Positions 28,769-46,260 of a stretch of DNA of 64,000 nt are shown here, piece by piece. Origin of the DNA: Escherichia coli O127:H6 str. E2348/69 (lineage in GTDB: Bacteria > Pseudomonadota > Gammaproteobacteria > Enterobacterales > Enterobacteriaceae); NCBI RefSeq assembly GCF_000026545.1, contig NC_011601.1; one strand, 5' to 3'. The position numbers and the translations under genes were made by a program. The number at the start of each line of letters is the position of its first letter. Within the stretch, counting starts at the first letter, position 1. The notes under the pieces are model-generated. The model did no database searches. It saw only the letters and a list, made by a program, of their open reading frames with translations, and had not been told where the DNA came from.

Positions 28769-29647
28769 ATGAAATATTCTTTAGGGCCGGTGCTATGGTA
28801 CTGGCCAAAAGAGACGCTGGAAGACTTTTATCAGCAGGCCGCCGCCAGCAGCGCAGACGTGATTTATCTTGGTGAAGCGGTCTGTAGCAAACGCCGGGCA
28901 ACCAAAGTTGGCGACTGGCTGGAGATGGCAAAATCGCTCGCCGGAAGTGGCAAGCAGATTGTGCTCTCCACGCTGGCGCTGGTGCAGGCATCCTCCGAAC
29001 TGGGCGAACTGAAACGCTATGTTGAGAACGGTGAGTTTCTGATTGAAGCCAGCGATCTCGGCGTGGTGAATATGTGCGCTGAACGCAAACTGCCGTTCGT
29101 CGCCGGGCACGCGCTGAACTGCTACAACGCGGTGACGCTGAAAATATTGCTCAAACAGGGCATGATGCGCTGGTGTATGCCGGTGGAGCTTTCCCGCGAC
29201 TGGCTGGTGAATCTGCTTAATCAGTGCGATGAGTTGGGCATTCGCAACCAGTTTGAAGTGGAAGTCCTGAGCTACGGTCATCTACCTCTGGCCTACTCCG
29301 CCCGCTGCTTTACCGCGCGTTCGGAAGACCGCCCGAAAGATGAGTGTGAAACCTGCTGCATTAAATATCCGAACGGGCGCAACGTACTGTCGCAGGAAAA
29401 CCAACAAGTGTTTGTACTCAACGGCATTCAGACCATGAGCGGCTACGTTTACAACCTCGGTAACGAGCTGGCATCCATGCAGGGGCTGGTCGATGTGGTC
29501 CGCCTGTCACCGCAGGGTACTGACACTTTCGCAATGCTCGATGCCTTCCGCGCTAATGAAAATGGCGCTGCGCCACTACCGTTAACGGCAAACAGCGATT
29601 GTAACGGCTACTGGCGGCGACTGGCCGGGCTGGAGCTGCAAGCGTAA
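28769..29647 (+). CDS. ubiV: U32-family protein, partner of UbiU (292 aa)
   Basis: Translation from MKYSLGPVLWYWPKETLEDFY; also known as YhbV. Confidence 0.88.
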   Translation: MKYSLGPVLWYWPKETLEDFYQQAAASSADVIYLGEAVCSKRRATKVGDWLEMAKSLAGSGKQIVLSTLALVQASSELGELKRYVENGEFLIEASDLGVVNMCAERKLPFVAGHALNCYNAVTLKILLKQGMMRWCMPVELSRDWLVNLLNQCDELGIRNQFEVEVLSYGHLPLAYSARCFTARSEDRPKDECETCCIKYPNGRNVLSQENQQVFVLNGIQTMSGYVYNLGNELASMQGLVDVVRLSPQGTDTFAMLDAFRANENGAAPLPLTANSDCNGYWRRLAGLELQA

Positions 29648-29727
29648 GTATATAGCTCACTTTGTTAACAACTTTAACTACTCTTTAATGCAGTATTAAA
29701 GATTAATCGGTAACAAAGTGAGCTGTT

Positions 29728-30735
29728 ATGACTGATAAAACCATTGCGTTTTCGCTACTCGATCTGGCCCCCATCCCCGAAGGTTCTTCAGCGCGGGAAG
29801 CGTTCTCCCACTCTCTCGACCTCGCCCGTCTGGCTGAAAAGCGCGGCTATCATCGCTACTGGCTGGCAGAACACCACAATATGACCGGCATTGCCAGTGC
29901 TGCAACGTCGGTGTTAATTGGCTATCTGGCGGCGAATACCACCACGCTGCATCTGGGGTCTGGCGGCGTGATGTTGCCTAACCACTCACCGTTGGTGATC
30001 GCCGAACAATTCGGCACGCTCAATACGCTCTATCCGGGGCGAATCGATTTGGGGCTGGGCCGCGCGCCGGGTAGCGATCAGCGAACCATGATGGCGCTGC
30101 GTCGTCATATGAGCGGCGATATTGATAATTTCCCCCGCGATGTCGCGGAACTGGTGGACTGGTTTGACGCCCGCGATCCCAATCCGCATGTGCGCCCAGT
30201 ACCAGGCTATGGCGAGAAAATCCCCGTGTGGTTGTTAGGATCCAGCCTTTACAGCGCGCAACTGGCGGCGCAGCTTGGTCTGCCGTTTGCGTTTGCCTCA
30301 CACTTCGCGCCGGATATGTTGTTCCAGGCGCTGCATCTTTATCGCAGCAACTTCAAACCGTCGGCACGGTTGGAGAAACCGTATGCGATGGTGTGCATCA
30401 ATATTATCGCCGCCGACAGCAACCGCGATGCTGAATTCCTGTTTACCTCAATGCAGCAAGCCTTTGTGAAGCTGCGCCGCGGCGAAACCGGGCAACTGCC
30501 GCCACCGATTCAAAATATGGATCAGTTCTGGTCGCCGTCCGAACAGTATGGTGTGCAGCAGGCGCTGAGTATGTCGCTGGTGGGCGATAAAGCGAAAGTG
30601 CGTCATGGCTTGCAGTCGATCCTGCGCGAAACCGACGCCGATGAGATTATGGTTAACGGGCAGATTTTCGACCACCAGGCACGCCTGCATTCGTTTGAGC
30701 TGGCGATGGATGTGAAGGAAGAGTTGTTGGGGTAG
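29728..30735 (+). CDS. yhbW: Luciferase-like (LLM-class) monooxygenase YhbW (335 aa)
   Basis: Translation and length. Confidence 0.88.
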
Positions 30736-30745
30736 TGTGTTTTAA

Positions 30746-30849
30746 CGTAGGAAGCCTTATCCGAGATGGCAACGCTGTCCTACGTAGGCCTGATAAGCGA
30801 AGCGCATCAGGCATTGTGTAGGCAGCAGAAATGTCGGATAAGGCACCGC
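30746..30849. repeat. REP/BIME cluster between yhbW and mtr
   Basis: gtaggcctgataagcgaagcgcatcaggc and flanking degenerate REP units. Confidence 0.7.
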
Positions 30850-30852
30850 TGA

Positions 30853-32097
30853 TTACTGATACACCGGCAGCACATTAAAGCTCGATAAGATATGGACCAG
30901 TGCGTTGCCAACGCCAAATACCAGAATCAGCATAATCATCGGCTTGCCGCCCCATACACGGAATTTCGGGCTACCAAAGCGTTTACGCGATGCGCGGGCC
31001 AACAGCGCCGGAACAATTGCCGCCCAGATGGTAGCCGCTAAGCCAGCATAACCAATGGCGTACAGGAATCCGTTAGGAAACAGCAGGCCACCCACAACAG
31101 GCGGGGCAAAGGTCAGCAACGCTGTTTTCAAACGGCCCATAGCCGAGTCGTCAAAACCAAACAGGTCTGCCAGATAGTCAAACAGGCCCAGCGTTACGCC
31201 GAGGAACGAACTCGCTACCGCAAAGTTTGAGAACACGACCAGTAGAAGATCCAGACTACGGCTGTTCAGTACGCCGCTTAACGCCTGTACCAGCACATCA
31301 ATATTACCGCCCTTCTCGGCGATACCGATAAACTCCGGACGCGGGATGTTACCCATCGTCGCCAGCAACCAGATGGTATACAGCGCCAGCGCCATCAGCG
31401 TACCATACACCAGGCATTTCACGATGGTTTTCGGATCTTTGCCGTAATACTTCATCAGGCTCGGTACGTTACCGTGATAACCAAACGATGCCAGACAGAA
31501 CGGCAGCGTCATCAACAGATACGGTGCATAAGACGCATTGCTTTCGGCGACGTTGAACAATGTCGCAGGCTGCACATGCCCCAGCAGGCTACCGAAGGTG
31601 AGGAAGAAGGTAATGACTTTCGCCCCCAGCACAATCGCTGTCATGCGACTGACGGCTTTGGTGCTCAACCACACCACAAACGCCACCAACAGTGCAAAAC
31701 CAAAACCCGCTGCCCGTGCCGGGACGTTCAATGACATCTCTGCGAAGGTATGATGCAGAATCGAACCGCTGGCAGAAATATAGGCGTAAGTCAGGATGTA
31801 GAGCACAAAGGCAATGGAAATGCCGTTGACCACGTTCCAGCCTTTGCCCAGCAAATCTTTGGTGATGGTGTCAAAGCTCGAACCGATTCGGTAATTCAGG
31901 TTAGCTTCCAGAATCATCAAGCCGGAATGCAGCATACAGAACCAGGTGAAAATCAGCGCCGCCATTGACCAGAAGAACCACGCCCCGGACATGACCACTG
32001 GCAGAGAAAACATCCCTGCGCCAATAATGGTGCCGCCGATAATCACCACGCCGCCAAGCAGCGACGGTGACGTTTGGGTGGTGGTTAGTGTTGCCAT
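30853..32097 (-). CDS. mtr: Tryptophan-specific permease (414 aa)
   Basis: Translation and length match recalled Mtr. Confidence 0.92.
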
Positions 32098-32175
32098 GAG
32101 GGCTTCTCTCCAGTGAAAAATAGTGCGACTGCGTTGTTATGCATTGCACTGTACCAGTACATGAGTACAAAAAAC
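32098..32175 (-). promoter_or_regulatory. mtr promoter region; GTACTCATGTACTGGTACAG resembles TrpR/TyrR-type operator sequence
   Basis: Palindromic GTAC-rich motif immediately upstream of mtr; mtr is known to be TrpR/TyrR regulated; exact boxes not resolved. Confidence 0.35.
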
Positions 32176-32208
32176 AGAAAAAAAGCCCCGATGGGTAAAA
32201 TCGGGGCT
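32176..32208 (-). terminator. Rho-independent terminator downstream of deaD (gccccgat...atcggggc plus U-run)
   Basis: Hairpin and T-run on the minus-strand transcript. Confidence 0.7.
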
Positions 32209-32250
32209 GTATATATTATTTTACAGATTGTGTTCGCTGTTCAGCGATGA

Positions 32251-34140
32251 TTACGCATCACCACCGAAACGACGACGACCGGTAGAGTCATCACGACGCG
32301 GTGCGCGGCCTTCACGACGTTCGCCGCTAAAACGACGCCCATCACCACGCCCCCCTTCACGGCGTTCACCGCTGAAGTTACGACCGCCTTCACGACGTTC
32401 GCCACCGAAACCACGACCACCGCCACGACGCTCACCGCCAGTATGCGGCTGTGCATCGCCCAGTAACTGCATGTTCATCGGCTTGTTGAGAATGCGAGTA
32501 CGCGTAAAGTGTTGCAGCACTTCACCCGGCATACCTTTCGGCAGTTCGATGGTGGAGTGAGAAGCAAACAGCTTGATGTTACCGATGTAACGGCTGCTGA
32601 TGTCGCCTTCGTTAGCAATCGCGCCAACGATATGACGAACTTCAACACCATCATCGCGGCCCACTTCAATACGGTACAACTGCATATCGCCAACATCACG
32701 ACGTTCGCGACGCGGACGATCTTCACGGTCGCCACGCGGGCCACGGTCGTTACGATCGCGCGGACCACGGTCATCACGGTCACGGAATTCACGTTTCGGA
32801 CGCATCGGCGCATCTGGCGGAACAATCAGAGTACGTTCACCCTGTGCCATTTTCAGTAGTGCGGCTGCCAGAGTTTCGAGATCCAGCTCTTCACCTTCGG
32901 CAGTCGGCTGAATTTTGCTCAGCAGTGCACGGTATTGATCCAGATCGCTGCTTTCCAGCTGCTGCTGTACTTTAGCGGCAAATTTTTCCAGACGACGTTT
33001 GCCCAGCAGTTCTGCGTTCGGCAGTTCTACTTCCGGAATGGTCAGCTTCATGGTGCGTTCGATGTTGCGCAGCAGACGACGCTCACGGTTCTCAACGAAC
33101 AGCAGTGCACGACCAGCACGACCTGCACGACCGGTACGACCGATACGGTGAACGTAAGACTCAGAATCCATCGGGATATCGTAGTTAACCACCAGGCTGA
33201 TACGCTCAACGTCCAGGCCACGGGCTGCAACGTCGGTCGCAATCAGGATGTCCAGACGACCATCTTTCAGGCGTTCCAGTGTCTGCTCACGCAGCGCCTG
33301 GTTCATGTCACCGTTCAGCGCGGCGCTGTTGTAGCCGTTACGCTCAAGAGCTTCTGCCACTTCCAGAGTCGCGTTTTTGGTACGAACGAAGATAATCGCC
33401 GCATCAAAATCTTCCGCTTCCAGGAAACGTACCAGTGCTTCGTTTTTACGCATACCCCAGACAGTCCAGTAGCTCTGGCTGATGTCAGGACGGGTAGTCA
33501 CGCTGGACTGAATGCGCACTTCCTGCGGCTCTTTCATAAAGCGGCGGGTAATGCGACGAATCGCTTCCGGCATGGTTGCAGAGAACAGAGCGGTCTGATG
33601 ACCTTCCGGGATCTGCGCCATAATGGTTTCAACGTCTTCGATGAAGCCCATGCGCAGCATTTCGTCAGCTTCATCCAGAACCAGACCGCTCAGTTTAGAG
33701 AGGTCCAGAGTGCCACGTTTCAGGTGGTCCAGCAGACGGCCCGGAGTACCGACAACGATCTGCGGCCCCTGACGCAGGGCGCGTAATTGCACGTCATAAC
33801 GTTGGCCGCCGTACAGGGCAACCACGTTTACGCCGCGCATGTGTTTAGAGAAATCCGTCATTGCTTCAGCAACCTGTACCGCCAGTTCGCGGGTCGGTGC
33901 CAGCACCAGAATCTGTGGTGCTTTCAGCTCAGGATCAAGATTCTGCAGCAGAGGTAAAGAGAATGCTGCAGTTTTTCCGCTCCCCGTCTGGGCCATACCC
34001 AGAACGTCGCGGCCATTCAGCAGATGTGGAATACACTCTGCCTGAATTGGAGATGGTTTTTCGTAACCCAGATCGTTAAGGGCTTCAAGGATAGGAGCCT
34101 TCAGGCCCAGATCTGCAAAAGTGGTTTCGAATTCAGCCAT
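32251..34140 (-). CDS. deaD: Cold-shock DEAD-box ATP-dependent RNA helicase (629 aa) with Arg/Gly-rich C-terminal tail
   Basis: Translation from [33 protein letters not shown]; DEAD and SAT motifs present; the 22-codon upstream extension is rejected. Confidence 0.92.
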
Positions 34141-34319
34141 GTAGTACGTGTGCCTCAAAATTAATGGCGGCCAGTCTACATAACTCATCATGAAATTGAT
34201 CAGCAATTTTCATTGAAAAGTGTGAACCGGCTCAAAGTAGGTGTATTAACGAACAACAACGCCCTCACCCGTTAAGGTGATGGCAATCAAAAAAGATTAC
34301 GGGCTGATGTGTACGTCAG
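34141..34319 (-). promoter_or_regulatory. Long deaD 5' untranslated leader
   Basis: 179-nt non-coding gap between the nlpI stop and the deaD start on the same strand; deaD is known to have a long leader. Confidence 0.4.
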
Positions 34320-35204
34320 CTATTGCTGGTCCGATTCTGCCAGGTCATCTTGGTCCTGGCCCAGGAGCGATAATTCCAACAATGCGTATCGGTGCTCAAC
34401 AAAGTTATGAACGTTGTTGGCAACCGCCAGTTTGAACAGTGCCGTGGCGCTGTCCAAATCCCCCAGACTTAGGTAGTACTTACCTAAATAGAAGTTGGTT
34501 TCACTGAGATGCTCAGCGAGCGAGGTGTTATCCGTTGCGTCCGCCTTGAGCCTTTCCATTAACGTTTGTTCGCTAATGTTGCCCAGGTAGAACTCGACAA
34601 TGTTCCATCCCCACTGTTCCTTATCCGATTTTTCGAAGTGCTGTTTCAACACTTCTTTAGCCTGCTTCTCATCGAGCTTCTGCTCGGCGAGATAAAGCCA
34701 CAGACTACGGAAAGGATCATTGGGATCGTCTTGATAAAACGCCAGCAGATCATCTTGCGCTAACTTGTCACGACCGCCGTAATATAATGCGATCCCGCGA
34801 TTCAAGTGCGCGTAGTTGTAAGTTGGATCAAGCTCAAGTACAGAATCAAACGCTTCATAGGCAGCATCAAAATTGCCTGCCTGCGTTAAATATATGCCTA
34901 AGTAATTGAATACTTCAGGCATATCCGGTCGGATTGCCAGCGCTTGCGAAAAATCGTTACGCGCTAATGCCCTCAGACCGAGACTATCATACAACACTCC
35001 GCGCTCATATAAAAGCTGTGCGCGTTCGTCATCGGTTAAAGCCCGACTGGCAAGGATCTGTTCCATACGTGCCAGAATCACTTCCTGCTGTAAAGTCGGT
35101 TGCAATGGTACCGCGAGGACTTCACTTTTACGCCAGGAAGTATTACTGCATCCTGCAAGCGTAAGTGCTGTCGCAACGAAACACCAGCGCAAAAAAGGCT
35201 TCAT
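34320..35204 (-). CDS. nlpI: TPR-repeat outer-membrane lipoprotein (294 aa)
   Basis: Translation [20 protein letters not shown] (lipobox). Confidence 0.92.
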
Positions 35205-35312
35205 TTCCCACTCCCGAAGACCACGGTTGAATGAACGTCCTGTTCCCGGTTGCTAACAAGGCGTCCTGCCCGGTTAAAAGCCCCCCGCCGCAGCGGAGGG
35301 CAAATGGCAACC

Positions 35313-37448
35313 TTACTCGCCCTGTTCAGCAGCCGGAGCTTCCAGTGCTGCAGCAGGTTGAGACTGCTCAGTCGCTTCTTTAATGCTCAGACGGATACGG
35401 CCCTGGCGATCAACTTCCAGCACTTTCACCGGTACTTCCTGACCCATCTGCAGGTAATCGGTCACTTTCTCAACGCGTTTATCAGCGATTTGAGAGATGT
35501 GGACCAGACCTTCTTTACCGCCACCAATGGCAACAAATGCGCCAAAGTCAACGATACGGGTCACTTTACCATTGTAGACGCGGCCCACTTCGATTTCTGC
35601 AGTGATCTCTTCGATACGACGAATCGCGTGTTTCGCTTTCTCGCCGTCGGTCGCTGCGATCTTCACAGTACCGTCATCTTCAATTTCGATGGTGGTGCCG
35701 GTTTCTTCGGTCAGAGCACGGATTACAGAACCGCCTTTACCGATAACATCTTTGATCTTGTCCGGGTTGATCTTGATGGTATGGATACGCGGTGCGAACT
35801 CAGAGATATCGCCACGCGGCGCGTTGATCGCCTGTTCCATTACCCCCAGTATATGCAGACGCGCACCTTTAGCCTGGTTCAGTGCAACCTGCATGATCTC
35901 TTTGGTGATACCTTCAATTTTGATATCCATCTGCAATGCAGAGATACCGTCACGGGAACCCGCAACTTTGAAGTCCATATCGCCCAGGTGATCTTCGTCG
36001 CCCAAAATGTCAGACAGTACAACGTAGTTGTCGCCTTCTTTCACCAGACCCATTGCGATACCCGCAACGGCGGCTTTGATTGGCACACCTGCGTCCATCA
36101 GCGCCAGAGACGCGCCGCACACGGAAGCCATAGAAGAGGAACCGTTGGATTCGGTGATTTCAGACACAACACGTACGGTGTACGGGAATTTGTCCATATC
36201 CGGCATTACTGCCAGCACGCCGCGCTTCGCCAGACGACCGTGACCAATTTCACGACGCTTCGGAGAACCGACCATGCCGGTTTCGCCTACGGAGTACGGA
36301 GGGAAGTTATAGTGGAACAGGAAGGTATCAGTACGTTCGCCCATCAGTTCATCAAGAACCTGCGCGTCACGAGCGGTACCCAGCGTTGCGGTAACCAGCG
36401 CCTGCGTTTCACCACGGGTGAACAGCGCAGAACCGTGAGTACGCGGCAGCACGCCAGTACGCACATCCAGACCACGGATCATATCTTTTTCACGACCGTC
36501 GATACGCGGTTCGCCTGCCAGTACGCGGCTACGAACAACGTTTTTCTCAATAGCGTGCAGAATTTCACCCAGTTCGTTTTCGTCCAGGGTTTCATCTTCA
36601 GCAAGCAGCGTCGCGATAGTTTCAGATTTGATGACATCAACCTGCGCATAACGCTCTTGTTTGTCGGTGATGCGGTAAGCATCGCTCAGACGAGCTTCAG
36701 CCAGTGCAGCAACGCGCGCGTTCAGCGCTTCGTTTACCGGCTCCGGCTGCCAGTCCCAACGCGGTTTACCGGCTTCTTTCACCAGTTCATTGATGTTCTG
36801 AATAACAACCTGCTGTTGTTCATGACCGAACACCACTGCGCCCAGCATTTGGTCTTCGCTCAGCAGTTCAGCTTCAGATTCAACCATCAGCACGGCAGCT
36901 TCTGTACCGGCAACAACCAGGTCCAGTTTGCTCTCTTTCAGTTCGTCCTGAGTCGGGTTCAGTACGTACTGGTCATTGATGTAACCTACACGGGCAGCAC
37001 CATTCGGGCCATTGAACGGAATACCAGACAGAGACAGTGCTGCGGAAGCACCAATCATCGCGACGATATCCGGGTTAACCTGCGGGTTAACAGAAACCAC
37101 GGTGGCGATAACCTGAACTTCGTTGACGAAGCCTTCCGGGAACAGCGGGCGAATCGGGCGGTCAATCAGACGCGCGATCAGGGTTTCGCCTTCGCTTGGG
37201 CGGCCTTCACGACGGAAGAAGCTACCCGGGATACGACCAGCAGCGTAGGTACGCTCCTGATAGTTAACGGTCAGCGGGAAGAAGTCCTGACCTGGTTTGG
37301 CTTTTTTCTGACCAACAACGGTAACAAATACCGCGGTGTCATCCATGCTAACCATAACAGCGGCAGTAGCCTGACGAGCCATCATGCCGGTTTCCAGAGT
37401 CACGGTGTGTTGGCCGTACTGGAATTTACGAACGATCGGATTAAGCAA
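35313..37448 (-). CDS. pnp: Polynucleotide phosphorylase (711 aa) with UUG start codon
   Basis: Translation (M)[20 protein letters not shown]; TTG at 37446-37448 gives the canonical 711-aa product. Confidence 0.92.
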
Positions 37449-37479
37449 TGTAATATCCTTTCTCTTTCTTAGACAGTAC

Positions 37480-37680
37480 CTTACGGTACTGGTGTTAATA
37501 CCCGATCTTCTGCGCATCCTCGCGACTAATGACAACCCTAACCCAGCTCTATGTGGGTAAAGCCTCTCATTAGCCGCGCGAACCTCTGCAACGGAAGATC
37601 ATTCATAGCAACAATACATTAGTTTCCAGTGAATTGCTGCCGTCAGCTTGAAAAAAGGGGCCACTCAGGCCCCCTTTTCT
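37480..37680 (+). ncRNA. sraG: Candidate SraG (PsrO) small RNA in the rpsO-pnp intergenic region
   Basis: Placed from recalled K-12 location (plus strand between pnp and rpsO); ends not determinable by eye; the bidirectional hairpin at 37657-37674 could serve as its terminator. Confidence 0.3.
37650..37680. terminator. rpsO terminator (ggggccactcaggccccc hairpin with A-run and T-run on either side)
   Basis: Perfect GC hairpin just downstream of the rpsO stop. Confidence 0.8.
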
Positions 37681-37694
37681 GAAACTCGCAAGAA

Positions 37695-38060
<366 letters not shown>

Positions 38061-38112
38061 TTAAGCGGCAGTATTCTACTCGTAGCGACCTGTTATCGCA
38101 AGACGGTTAACA

Positions 38113-39057
38113 TTACGCCGGGTATTCAACCACCAGGCGACGAGGCGCAACGCGGCCTTCATCGTCAATTTCGCCCATACCGATAAACTTGCCGTTCTCA
38201 CCCTCTGTAACGCGAACCAGTCCTTCCAGCGGCGCACCGGATGTACGAACTGGGTTACCATTTTTGAAGTAAACAGAAGACGTTAACGGAAGATTCACCA
38301 CCGGGTAGTCCGAAGCTGGACTGTCCATTGGCATCAGTAATGGATCAAGTAACTCCGCAGCCGGAATATCCTGCTGTTCGGCTTGCTCAACCAGTTCACG
38401 CAGATGTTCCAGGGTCACCATCCGTTCAACCGGATATTTACTTACCGCCAGACGACGCAAGTAAATAACATGCGCGCCACAACCGAGTTTTTCGCCGAGA
38501 TCGTCAATGATAGTGCGGATATAAGTGCCTTTTGAGCAGTGAATTTCCAGCTCCAGCTCATTGCCTTCATGGCGAATAAACAGCAATTCATAAACGGTAA
38601 TCGGGCGCGCTTCACGCGGAACTTCAATGCCCTGACGCGCGTATTCGTACAGTTTTTTGCCCTGATATTTCAGTGCTGAATACATCGAAGGGATCTGTTC
38701 GATATCGCCACGGAAGGTATCCAGCGCCGCCGCCAGTTGCTCTGCACTAAAGGTTACCGGACGTTCTTCAACGATTTGTCCGTCGGCATCAGAAGTATCG
38801 GTACGCTGTCCAAGACGCGCAATGACCCGATAGCGTTTGTCGGAGTCCAGCAGATACTGGGAAAACTTCGTCGCTTCCCCGAGGCAAATTGGCAACATGC
38901 CGGTCGCCAGCGGGTCCAGCGCACCGGTATGCCCGGCACGGTTGGCGTTATAAATCCGTTTCACTTTTTGCAGCGCATCGTTGCTGGACATCCCCTGCGG
39001 TTTATCCAGCAACAAAACGCCGTTAATGTCGCGACCGCGACGACGAGGACGACTCAT
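38113..39057 (-). CDS. truB: tRNA pseudouridine-55 synthase (314 aa)
   Basis: Translation and length. Confidence 0.92.
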
Positions 39058-39458
39058 TAGCCCTCCTTGCTGTCGTCCGGGTTAACACGACGTTCTTCGT
39101 CATGTTTGACCACGCTGGTCACCAGGTTTGACATGCGCATCCCTTCAACCAGAGAGTTGTCGTAGAAGAAGGTCAGTTCCGGCACGATACGCAGGCGCAT
39201 CGCTTTCCCCAGCAGGCTGCGGATGAAACCAGAAGCTTCCTGCAACGCTTTGATGCCCGCTTTAACCGCGTCTTCATCTTTGTCGTTGAGGAACGTCACA
39301 TATACTTTGGCATACGCCAGGTCGCGAGACATTTCGACACCGGAAACGGTGGTCATCATGCCCAGACGAGGATCTTTAATTTCACGCTGCAGGATGAGAG
39401 CGATCTCTTTTTGCATTTCCTGCGCTACGCGCTGCGGGCGACCAAATTCTTTCGCCAT
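39057..39458 (-). CDS. rbfA: Ribosome-binding factor A (133 aa)
   Basis: Translation from [23 protein letters not shown]; the upstream extension is rejected. Confidence 0.9.
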
Positions 39459-39473
39459 AATAAATTCTCCTGA

Positions 39474-39500
39474 CAAAAAAGGGGCTGTTAGCCCCTTTTT
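39474..39500 (-). terminator. Hairpin plus U-run between infB and rbfA (internal attenuator/terminator-like structure)
   Basis: ggggctgttagcccc flanked by A- and T-runs. Confidence 0.4.
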
Positions 39501-39535
39501 AAAATTAATTTCAGGTGGAAGGGCTGTTCACGTTG

Positions 39536-39604
39536 GCCTGATAAGACGCGCCAGCGTCGCATCAGGCAATCCATGCAGGATGCGACATAAACGCCTTATC
39601 CTGC
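39536..39604. repeat. REP/BIME element between infB and rbfA
   Basis: gcctgataagacgcgccagcgtcgcatcaggc plus a second REP-like unit. Confidence 0.75.
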
Positions 39605-39621
39605 ATGGAACCCTAAAAACC

Positions 39622-42294
39622 TTAAGCGATGGTACGTTGGATCTCGATGATTTCGAATACTTCGATCACATCGCCAGTGCGGACATCGTTGTAGTTCTTA
39701 ACGCCGATACCACATTCCATACCGTTACGGACTTCGTTAACGTCATCTTTGAAGCGTCGCAGGGACTCCAGCTCGCCTTCGTAGATAACCACGTTGTCGC
39801 GCAGAACGCGGATCGGGTTGTGACGTTTAACCACACCTTCGGTAACCATACAACCTGCGATGGCACCAAATTTCGGTGATTTGAACACGTCACGAACTTC
39901 CGCCAGACCGATAATCTGCTGTTTCAGTTCCGGAGACAGCATACCGCTCATCGCCGCTTTCACTTCGTCGATCAGGTTATAGATGACGGAGTAGTAACGC
40001 AGATCCAGGCTTTCCGCTTCAATCACTTTACGTGCAGAGGCATCAGCACGTACGTTGAAGCCAACCAGGATGGCGTTGGACGCCGCAGCCAGGGTAGCGT
40101 CGGTTTCGGTGATACCACCTACGCCAGAACCGATGATCTTCACTTTAACTTCGTCAGTAGACAGTTTCAGCAAGGAGTCGGAAATTGCTTCCACAGAACC
40201 CTGTACGTCTGCCTTCAGGACGATATTCACTTCGTGAACTTCGCCTTCGGTCATGTTGGCGAACATGTTCTCGAGTTTAGATTTCTGCTGACGCGCCAGT
40301 TTAACTTCGCGGAATTTACCCTGACGATAGAGTGCAACTTCACGCGCTTTCTTCTCGTCACGTACGACGGTAACTTCATCACCCGCAGCCGGTACGCCGG
40401 ACAGGCCGAGGATTTCCACCGGAATGGACGGACCCGCTTCCAGCACTTCCTGACCCAGTTCGTTACGCATTGCACGAACACGACCGTATTCGAAGCCACA
40501 CAGAACGATATCGCCCTTGTGCAGAGTACCTTCACGTACCAGAACGGTAGCAACCGGACCACGACCTTTATCGAGGAAGGATTCGATAACCGCACCGCTC
40601 GCCATACCTTTACGTACCGCTTTCAGCTCCAGAACTTCCGCCTGCAGCAGGATAGCATCCAGCAGTTCATCAATACCGGTACCCGCTTTTGCAGATACGT
40701 GTACGAACTGGCTTTCGCCGCCCCACTCTTCTGGCAGGATGCCGTACTGGGAGAGTTCGTTCTTAACGCGATCCGGATCGGCTTCTGGTTTATCGATTTT
40801 GTTCACAGCAACCACCACCGGAACACCCGCCGCTTTCGCGTGCTGGATAGCTTCGATGGTCTGCGGCATTACACCGTCGTCTGCAGCAACAACCAGGACT
40901 ACGATGTCCGTTGCCTGCGCACCACGTGCACGCATTGAAGTAAACGCGGCGTGCCCCGGGGTGTCCAAGAAGGTGATCATGCCGTTTTCAGTTTCAACGT
41001 GGTATGCACCAATGTGCTGGGTAATGCCGCCCGCTTCGCCAGAGGCCACTTTCGTTGAACGAATGTAGTCCAGCAGAGAGGTTTTACCGTGGTCAACGTG
41101 ACCCATGATGGTCACAACCGGCGCGCGCGGTTCAGCCGCAGCACCCGTGTCACGGTCGCTCATTACCGCCTCTTCCAGCTCGTTTTCACGACGCAGGATA
41201 ACTTTGTGGCCCATCTCTTCAGCAACCAGCTGTGCGGTTTCCTGATCGATAACCTGGTTGATGGTTGCCATTGCGCCCAGTTTCATCATCGCTTTGATGA
41301 CCTGAGAGCCTTTAACCGCCATCTTGTTCGCCAGTTCGCCAACGGTGATGGTTTCGCCGATCACAACGTCACGGTTAACGGCCTGAGCTGGCTTCTGGAA
41401 GCCTTGCTGCAGCGAAGAGCCTTTACGTTTTCCGCCCTTACCGCCACGTACTGCTGCGCGAGCTTCTTCACGATCAGCTTTTGATTCAGCGTGTTTGTTG
41501 CCTTTCTTCGGACGCGCTGCTTTCGCGTTACGACCACGGCCGCGGCCGCCTTCGACTTCACGATCGCTTTCGTCTTCTGCCTGGCGAGCATGTTGAGAAG
41601 TAGTGACGTGATAATCGCTGGAATCTTCAGTCGGTTCCGCGTTATCAGTCCATTTGTTTTCTTCCGCCATACGACGTGCTTCTTCAGCAACGCGACGTGC
41701 TTCTTCTTCGAGTTTACGACGCGCTTCTTCTTCGGCTTTACGCTTGAGCTCTGCAGCTTCCTGCTCACGGCGGGCTTTTTCAGCCTGGGCGTTTTTAGTC
41801 ATATCGTCTTGTTGATTGCTCACTTTGTCTTTTTCCGCAGCTTCACGTTTCGCTTGTTCAGCAGCTTCACGCTTAGCTTGTTCTGCGGCCTCACGTTCAG
41901 CTTTTTGTTGCGCCTCGCGTTTAGCCGATTCTTCTGCCTCACGACGGGCTTGCTCTTCCGCTTCACGCTGCGCTTGCTCTTCCGCTGCAAGGCGCTCAGC
42001 CTCTTGCGGATCGCGTTTCACAAAGGTGCGTTTCTTGCGGACTTCGATTTGTACCGATTTGCTTTTTCCACCGGTACCAGGAATGTTAAGGGTGCTGCGT
42101 GTTTTACGTTGCAGCGTCAATTTGTCCGGGCCTGAATTTTTCTGATTCAGGTGGTCAATCAAAGTCTGTTTCTCTTGTGCAGACACAGAGTCGTCAGCAG
42201 ACTTCCGGATACCTGCATCAGCAAATTGCTGTACCAGGCGTTCCACGGAGGTCTGTCGCTCTGCGGCCAGCGTTTTAATCGTTACATCTGTCAT
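39622..42294 (-). CDS. infB: Translation initiation factor IF-2 (890 aa)
   Basis: Translation [20 protein letters not shown]... with GTP-binding motifs; repetitive Glu/Ala/Lys/Arg N-terminal region. Confidence 0.95.
41800..41823 (-). other. Internal in-frame initiation codons of infB: GUG at codon 158 (IF2-beta) and AUG at codon 165 (IF2-gamma)
   Basis: Codon positions counted from the translation (V158, M165); function assigned from established knowledge of IF2 isoforms. Confidence 0.5.
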
Positions 42295-42318
42295 GCTGTT
42301 CCTTCCTGCTACAGTTTA

Positions 42319-43806
<1,488 letters not shown>

Positions 43807-43833
43807 CGCGGGCTTTTCACCTCATCCAGACTA

Positions 43834-44298
43834 TTAAAAGTGGGGAACCAGGTTCGCCTTCTGGATATTACTCAGCGCGAACACTTCATCTTTACCTTCG
43901 ACGGTAACTGTGATCATTTCACCGTCTACCGCTTTGATAACGCCCTGCCATTTACGACGGTTTTGTACCGCCATACGGAGAACCAGAGTCACCTCTTCTC
44001 CGACAAAACGGGCGTAGTGTTCAGCCGTGAACAGTGGGCGATCGAGACCCGGTGAGGAGACTTCCAGGTTATAAGCAACGGTGATGGGGTCTTCAACATC
44101 CAGCACAGCACTTACCTGGTGGCTCACATCAGCACAATCATCAACATTGATGCCATCTTCACTATCAATATAGATGCGCAGTGTGGATGTGCGACCGCGA
44201 ATAAATTCGATGCCAACCAGTTCAAAACCCAGGGCCTCAACTGGCGCAGTAATCATCTCTGTTAATTTTTGCTCTAATGTGGACAAGCCCACCCCCAA
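43834..44298 (-). CDS. rimP: Ribosome maturation factor RimP (ORF 154 aa; true start possibly the TTG at codon 5, giving 150 aa)
   Basis: Translation ...[27 protein letters not shown]. Confidence 0.88.
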
Positions 44299-44344
44299 GA
44301 CATAAAAAAAGGGCCTAAAGCCCAGTTATTCTGTAGTCAGATAA

Positions 44345-44370
44345 CAAAAAACCCCGATAAATCGGGGCTT
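44345..44370 (-). terminator. Hairpin plus U-run between metY and rimP (partial terminator/attenuator of the metY-nusA operon)
   Basis: ccccgataaatcgggg hairpin with flanking A-run and T-run. Confidence 0.5.
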
Positions 44371-44492
44371 TATATAACTGAACCCTATAACCGCAACTGC
44401 GGTCTGGAGCACTTTCCAGAAGGATTTTTTCAAATCCCACTACGAAGGCCGAAGTCTTCACAGTATATTTGAAAAAGGACTCTAAGGGAAAG

Positions 44493-44569
<77 letters not shown>

Positions 44570-44830
44570 CCTGAAACATGGCAAATTCTACTCGTTTTGG
44601 GTAAAAAATGCAAATACTGCTGGGATTTGGTGTACCGAGACGGGACGTAAAATCTGCAGGCATTATAGTGATCCACGCCACATTTTGTCAACGTTTATTG
44701 CTAATCACGTGAATGAATATCCAGTTCACTTTCATTTGTTGAATACTTTTACCTTCTCCTGCTTTCCCTTAAGCGCATTATTTTACAAAAAACACACTAA
44801 ACTCTTCCTGTCTCCGATAAAAGATGATTA

Positions 44831-44866
44831 AATGAAAACTCATTTATTTTGCATAAAAATTCAGTG
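44831..44866 (+). promoter_or_regulatory. Two adjacent ARG boxes (ArgR operator) upstream of argG
   Basis: aaTGAAaactCATTtatt and tTGCATaaaaATTCAgt resemble the ARG-box consensus TGAAT-N4-ATTCA; about 50 bp upstream of the argG ATG. Confidence 0.5.
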
Positions 44867-44901
44867 AGAGCAGAAATCCAGGCTCATCATCAGTTAATTA
44901 A

Positions 44902-46260
<1,359 letters not shown>

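Follow-up and report, generated by a model that had tools for sequence, protein, structure and literature searches.

Tandem periodicity inside a gene can belong to the protein or to an element laid over the reading frame, and this locus raises that question twice. The window analyzed here, a 64,000 nt stretch of Escherichia coli O127:H6 str. E2348/69 (contig NC_011601.1), carries periodic DNA at the 3′ end of deaD (csdA) and in the N-terminal part of infB, both on the minus strand. Are these coding repeats, at which level are they maintained, and do they change length between strains?

Two genes with in-frame repeats

The local gene order in the ORF list (mtr, deaD, nlpI, pnp, rpsO, truB, rbfA, infB, nusA) is that of E. 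coli, and the assignment of the two genes to DeaD and IF2, made in a preliminary description of the window from its letters and open reading frames, proved right on two counts. A 411-nt query from the deaD 3′ end and a 441-nt query covering the infB repeat each returned matches in 5,425/5,426 complete E. coli genomes, labeled deaD and infB by RefSeq, respectively. The Pfam architectures agree with these labels. DeaD presents DEAD, Helicase_C, DeaD_dimer, DbpA and DeaD_C, each over its cut-off: the helicase core is present (PF00270, 177 bits; PF00271, 111.8 bits), next comes the dimerization domain (PF25399, 64.7 bits, residues 374-443) and then a DbpA-type RNA-binding domain (PF03880, 73.6 bits, residues 489-558) that matches PDB 5B88, ‘ATP-dependent RNA helicase DeaD’, with an E value of 7e-51. 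Helicase core, dimerization domain, DbpA-like RNA-binding domain and tail thus stand in the same order as in E. coli DeaD/CsdA. The mechanical deaD frame runs on to a TTG at 34206 (32251-34206, minus), which is not the real start. IF2 presents two copies of IF2_N along with IF2_assoc, GTP_EFTU, EF-G_D2, IF-2 and GTP_EFTU_D2; PF00009, PF11987, PF03144, PF22042, PF04760 (two stretches) and PF08364 all exceed their cut-offs. Its N-terminal 317 aa match, over their whole length, the sequence deposited for PDB 3JCJ chain f (1-317 on 1-317, E 1.3e-183), and the N1 subdomain matches PDB 1ND9.

Table 1. Coordinates of the genes, repeat units, internal start codons and neighboring RNAs (positions are those of the window)
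Feature	Position	Strand	Extent or remark	Evidence
deaD (csdA) CDS	32251..34140	minus	629 codons + stop	translation, Pfam, RefSeq annotation of matching genomes
DeaD Arg/Gly-rich repeat array, four units	32266..32439	minus	codons 568-625	codon layout, TRF, Pfam, motif shuffles
DeaD repeat unit 1	32407-32439	minus	11 residues	codon layout
DeaD repeat unit 2	32374-32406	minus	11 residues	codon layout
DeaD repeat unit 3	32329-32373	minus	15 residues	codon layout
DeaD repeat unit 4	32266-32328	minus	21 residues	codon layout
Conserved terminal GGDA + stop codon	32251..32265	minus		translation, codon layout
infB CDS	39622..42294	minus	890 codons + stop	translation, Pfam, RefSeq annotation
IF2 repeat block 1	41836..42003	minus	codons 98-153; seven 8-residue (24-nt) units	codon layout, TRF, lag-24 identity
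IF2 repeat block 2	41659..41739	minus	codons 186-212; KAEEEARR / KLEEEARR / VAEEARR / MAEE	TRF periods 21, 24
GTG codon 158, IF2-2 internal start	41821..41823	minus		codon read here; start role from 10.1101/2021.11.18.469101
ATG codon 165, IF2-3 internal start	41800..41802	minus		codon read here; start role from 10.1101/2021.11.18.469101
SraG sRNA	37507-37678			Rfam gathering-level match
S15 (rpsO) leader	37908-38022			Rfam gathering-level match
naRNA4	39535-39605		just downstream of infB	Rfam gathering-level match
rimP leader	44304-44404			Rfam gathering-level match
tRNA	44496-44569			Rfam gathering-level match

Translation and codon layout place imperfect GERREGGR-type repeats at the deaD 3′ end exactly where they had been described, on the minus strand and in frame (Table 1). 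The units are of the GERR(E/G)GGR type, each opened by [GS]GERR and closed by Phe, and PF12343 (DeaD_C) covers residues 568-629 over model positions 1-62 of 62 (45.6 bits versus a cut-off of 23.3). Tandem Repeats Finder (TRF) reports a period of 33 at 32344-32439 (2.9 copies, 71% matches, score 101). Among 20000 residue shuffles of the tail, 70 (0.35%) reached the observed three copies of GERREG and 92 (0.46%) the two copies of GERREGGR. The deaD repeat is real but degenerate.

The infB repeats had been put at about codons 95-160. Seven octads do lie there in frame, at codons 98-153 (in order EAERLAAE, EQAQREAE, EQARREAE, ESAKREAQ, QKAEREAA, EQAKREAA and EQAKREAA), but that range omits a second block at codons 186-212. 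TRF finds a period of 24 in two stretches of block 1, at 41829-41903 (3.1 copies, 82%) and 41930-41986 (2.4 copies, 84%). The isoforms of IF2 begin at codons 1, 158 and 165 (10.1101/2021.11.18.469101). Block 1 ends 12 nt (four codons) upstream of GTG158, and ATG165 follows seven codons beyond GTG158; lying upstream of both internal starts, block 1 is therefore confined to the full-length isoform IF2-1, and block 2 is found in all isoforms. The nucleotide-level tandem periodicity claimed for both genes is strong in infB block 1, where identity at lag 24 is 0.70 versus 0.38±0.04 in codon-shuffled sequence (z 7.7, 0/5000), with a z of 3.6 in block 2. It is weak in deaD, where identity at lag 33 is 0.49 versus 0.40±0.04 (z 2.2) and the 33-nt periodicity over the whole tail has no significance when all lags are allowed (733/5000 shuffles), because the units differ in length.

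Two further stretches of DeaD have low complexity or repeat structure. One, at ~32720-32820 (residues ~441-475), lies between the dimerization and RNA-binding domains, overlaps TRF hits at 32796-32819 and shows indel differences relative to Klebsiella-like and Enterobacter-like sequences. The other, a TRF array of period 9 at 33106-33142 (4 copies, 88% matches), encodes GRAGRAGRA right after helicase motif VI and is another short coding repeat.

Length differences between strains and genera

The repeats had been called prone to in-frame length variation between strains. Such variation was found in both genes, always in multiples of 3, but ‘prone to’ is too strong for regions that keep their standard length in 97% (deaD) and 99% (infB) of complete E. 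coli genomes. All changes involve whole units, their junctions show microhomology or chimeric units, and every variant record fetched holds an intact CDS.

For deaD, 40 of the 5,425 matches were sampled at even spacing (every ~90th record); 38 were of exactly the query length, the exceptions being the two lowest-ranked matches. Synthetic queries with one unit deleted or inserted were used so that variant alleles would rank first, which worked well for infB. The deaD version was less clean: standard alleles were also split into two pieces, and the resulting figure of ~162/5,425 complete genomes (~3%) with a tail length variant may miss other rare small indels. Nearly all of these variants are a +12 nt allele, a tandem duplication that turns REGG into REGGREGG and gives a 633-aa DeaD (strain MSB1_7C). 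Used as a query, this allele matched ~160 genomes at ≥99%, strain 042 among them, and 40/40 among the matches listed were 100% identical over 423 nt; such sequence identity suggests a single inherited allele, present at about 3%. Two more variants occur in one genome each. Strain FXCREC035 lacks 132 nt, with 44 codons lost between two copies of GCGTCGTG and a 585-aa product, and strain K56-43-un lacks 33 nt, exactly one unit, as found by the synthetic one-unit deletion query. A 1-nt length difference in H323 was rejected as a tail variant, since it sits in the mtr-deaD intergenic region.

With the standard infB query, identity was 90-95% in 51 genomes and 80-90% in 2, and the count of length variants, about 49/5,425 (~0.9%), roughly matches these 53. 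Block 1 is shorter by 24 nt in 6 genomes, longer by 24 nt in 8 and longer by 48 nt, or two units, in 1, strain OkiPb01695. Block 2 is shorter by 24 nt in 29 genomes of one strain series (Esc1-29/CNR20191027), shorter by 21 nt in 4 records (3 strains) and longer by 21 nt in 1 genome, that of strain CMZE046. The variant CDS encode 882, 883, 897, 898 or 906 aa and are all annotated as intact infB. Unit-by-unit DNA comparison of three sampled −24 alleles gave three different junctions, and in three sampled +24 alleles different units had been duplicated or different chimeric units created, with at least 7 distinct events among the 15 genomes that vary in block 1. Over both blocks, the junction sequences point to at least ten independent events, none of them widespread. 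The window itself shows no difference from E. coli IF2 (Domains I-II and isoforms IF2-1/2/3): it shares the 890 aa, GTG158, ATG165 and N1 (PDB 1ND9), in contrast to the ~1% of other genomes whose 882-906 aa products have lost one unit or gained one or two.

In one older assembly of E. coli Nissle 1917 (NZ_CP007799.1), the infB repeat query found four matching places and what seems to be a unit-length difference, at 94.7% identity. The repeat has its standard length in other Nissle assemblies, and the record itself was probably misassembled.

That the length variants as a class are sequencing or assembly artefacts we regard as unlikely. Several are singletons (deaD −33 and −132; infB +48 and +21), and public fragment proteins include frameshifted tails resembling homopolymer errors, but the deaD +12 allele stands in ~160 independent assemblies including that of strain 042, the block 2 −24 allele in 29 assemblies, all of the Esc1-29/CNR20191027 series, and the infB −21 change in three strains, with exact units and clean junctions in every case. 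Some of the singletons could be assembly errors.

On the coding strand, the window deaD allele has a six-G run at 32350-32355 (GAAGGGGGGCGT) where K-12 has GAAGGTGGCCGT. Our own translation after deletion of one G from the GAAGGGGGGCGT run gives exactly the Val-rich frameshifted tail of one public fragment protein (P0007), and in a second (P0008) a comparable shifted tail begins one residue before that point. Both shifted tails are probably homopolymer sequencing errors but could be real frameshift alleles.

Between genera, the C-terminal 149 aa of DeaD were compared with sequences from Klebsiella, Enterobacter, Serratia, Hafnia, Proteus and metagenome fragments. The protein search returned mostly fragments, many of them frameshifted, a collection suited to comparing tail length and composition and not to a clean species tree. 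Past the conserved ...NMQLxGDA motif, the tails of other Enterobacterales run for 50-89 residues with 1-5 GERR units and an R+G fraction of 0.43-0.62, and most intact ones keep the RRRFG(G)DA ending. In these sequences, tail composition and terminal motif are conserved between genera, and unit number is not.

Protein repeat or nucleic-acid element

If the DNA repeats were under selection of their own, units should resemble each other beyond what their protein dictates. With the protein held fixed and codons redrawn from each gene's own usage, unit-to-unit DNA identity was 0.49 observed versus 0.52 expected in deaD (z −1.4) and 0.70 versus 0.66 in infB (z +1.8; a second infB test gave +1.2). 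Since the protein repeat together with codon usage accounts for all the likeness between units, the periodicity is a by-product of the amino-acid repeat written with biased codons. Comparison with K-12 bears out the earlier statement that these are coding repeats, in frame. Over the final 309 nt of deaD the two strains differ at 6 nucleotides, all synonymous (the six-G run versus GGTGGC in K-12 is part of this difference), and the tail protein is identical, with the same full-length match to PF12343.

Synonymous diversity among E. coli is much higher at the deaD 3′ end (32150-32560) than in the infB repeat region (41620-42060). Genomes at least 99% identical to the window number 970/5,425 for deaD versus 5,263/5,425 for infB, and K-12 is 97.6% and 99.5% identical to the window at the two places, respectively.

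A reading of the periodic DNA as an element that overlaps the genes but is non-coding or acts at the RNA level, be it a repeat array, an sRNA or a regulatory RNA for IF2-2/IF2-3 initiation, is highly improbable on this evidence. It can draw on the TRF arrays seen at the DNA level, on the 12 nt that separate the end of block 1 from GTG158 and on the 3′ end of deaD, where a 261-nt region of the RNA folds slightly better than its shuffles (z −2.0, 7/200), mainly through a predicted G·U-rich hairpin across the stop codon (32231-32274, minus). There may thus be a minor RNA-level contribution around that stop codon. Yet the infB repeat RNA has no extra fold stability relative to shuffles (z −0.34), and an Rfam search of 29000-46000 returned no family overlapping either repeat while finding five known RNAs nearby (Table 1). 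Synonymous sites vary between units and between strains with the protein unchanged, the resampling accounts for the likeness between units, and the copy-number changes leave the sequence beside GTG158 intact. We consider an element of this kind largely refuted. The five RNAs are all expected in this region of E. coli.

Could the repeats instead be contingency loci, hypermutable tracts whose copy number switches frequently and adaptively as in phase-variable genes? The recurrence of independent infB unit changes (the seven or more block 1 events among 15 variant genomes) and a deaD length allele common to ~160 genomes are what such loci might leave behind. The units that come and go, however, measure 12, 21, 24 and 33 nt, all divisible by 3, and on/off switching is therefore impossible; only ~0.9% (infB) and ~3% (deaD) of the 5,425 genomes differ in length, unit DNA identity is only 70-88%, and the identity of the +12 deaD allele over 423 nt in 40/40 among the matches listed speaks for one inherited event. 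We judge this extremely improbable.

The opposite-strand frames at 32228-32560 (+, 110 aa) and 41491-42135 (+, 214 aa), although both stand in the mechanical ORF list, are almost certainly not overlapping genes, their translations being mirror-image low complexity (Pro/Arg/Ser-rich and Phe/Leu-rich) of the kind expected from reverse complements of CGT/GGT/GAA/GCN codons, which cannot form stops, with TTG or GTG starts and with strain variation that is synonymous in the deaD frame.

Proposed roles of the tail and the linker

We are confident in reading the deaD and infB repeats as protein-coding low-complexity sequence kept by selection on the protein and not on DNA or RNA, the former most likely as a tethering tail and the latter most likely as a helical spacer, with slippage of whole units tolerated. 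Both genes are housekeeping and cold-shock-linked, and protein-level selection would retain their repeats.

In DeaD, the last ~62 residues would form a disordered, net-positive Arg/Gly/Glu tail of degenerate GERR(E/G)GGR..F units, in line with the Pfam name for DeaD_C, ‘C-terminal disordered region’. The only solved structure of the DeaD C-terminus, PDB 5B88, covers about 482-564; it ends at about residue 564 and the tail has therefore never been resolved. Judged by composition and literature, the tail most likely serves as a tether that binds RNA non-specifically and increases the affinity of the dimeric helicase for RNA locally; it may also promote self-association. CsdA C-terminal truncations impair low-temperature function, and RNA-dependent foci are formed by bacterial DEAD-box proteins that carry such tails. 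Disordered tails rich in RGG/RG are known from eukaryotic RNA-binding proteins and DEAD-box ATPases, and the DeaD tail resembles these in being a low-complexity Arg/Gly end on an RNA-binding/helicase core (63% R+G, net charge +8, interspersed Phe). It differs from them in the acidic residues of its GERR(E/G)GGR unit and in its single RGG tripeptide: by eye we counted one RGG, three RG and six GR in the tail, and found no canonical RGG box (di-/tri-RGG clusters) there. We know of no arginine methylation system in E. coli. A review by Iost and Dreyfus (PMC1616957) proposes that the C-terminal extensions of E. coli DEAD-box proteins bind RNA at secondary sites and so keep the core close to its substrate.

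In IF2, the Glu/Ala/Lys/Arg octads would be part of one long charged helix of the ER/K (single alpha-helix) type that bridges the N1 subdomain at the N-terminus and the ribosome-binding core, most likely as a semi-rigid spacer; composition, prediction and literature all enter into this proposal. ER/K single alpha-helices (SAH domains) are known, for example, in myosin VI/X and caldesmon. The IF2 stretch shares with them its 55% of charged residues and the significant E(i)-K/R(i+4) spacing, and an uninterrupted helix of ~120 residues without a hydrophobic seam is predicted for it. Acidic(i)-basic(i+4) pairs number 18 versus 8.3±2.1 in shuffles (0/20000), and AlphaFold2 run on the single sequence predicts one helix over residues 96-216, with pLDDT >90 for ~110-210, although a charged Ala-rich sequence is readily predicted helical. 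Unlike those domains, which balance E, K and R, it is Glu/Ala-rich, with Ala at 25% and net charge at −7, and its helix is a predicted one. By simple helix geometry, each octad would amount to ~1.2 nm of helix length.

In PMC12297416, Domain I of IF2 is described as tied to the core via a long flexible linker and as binding NusA. According to Ghosh et al., growth at 15 °C depends on the IF2 N-terminal region, which in the cold also drives condensation with RNA; they regard this region as disordered throughout, with a degree of helical content, and find that its disordered lengths vary widely over 39,197 bacterial IF2 sequences, with a median of 320 aa (10.1101/2025.02.02.631968). The linker of the window is the region called flexible or disordered in these two sources, and the predicted ER/K-type spacer fits both the ‘long flexible linker’ and the helical content reported.

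The direct DNA repeats of 21-33 nt formed by the units would explain why whole units are gained and lost: occasional replication slippage or unequal exchange would add or remove them. Such changes keep the frame and their products are tolerated, which would leave length polymorphism at low frequency among E. coli strains and larger differences from genus to genus. One could speculate further that octad number in IF2-1 determines how far the NusA-binding N1 can reach from the ribosome-bound core, and that RNA tethering or condensation in the cold is tuned by how many GERR units DeaD has, both numbers acting as selectable ‘length dials’ as opposed to products of neutral slippage. We think this very unlikely; if true, natural unit gains and losses would be selectable for cold adaptation or transcription-translation coupling.

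The original observation on this window is confirmed and its interpretation supported. Both regions are already-described features of two textbook proteins, with nothing new in kind; what is added, modestly and at a descriptive level, is how common the in-frame length alleles are and how independently they arose. For annotation, it would be wrong to label the segments that TRF flags here as non-coding repeats, CRISPR-like arrays or antisense genes. For biology, the natural length alleles of deaD (~3%) and infB (~1%) could aid the study of disordered regions in cold adaptation and condensates.
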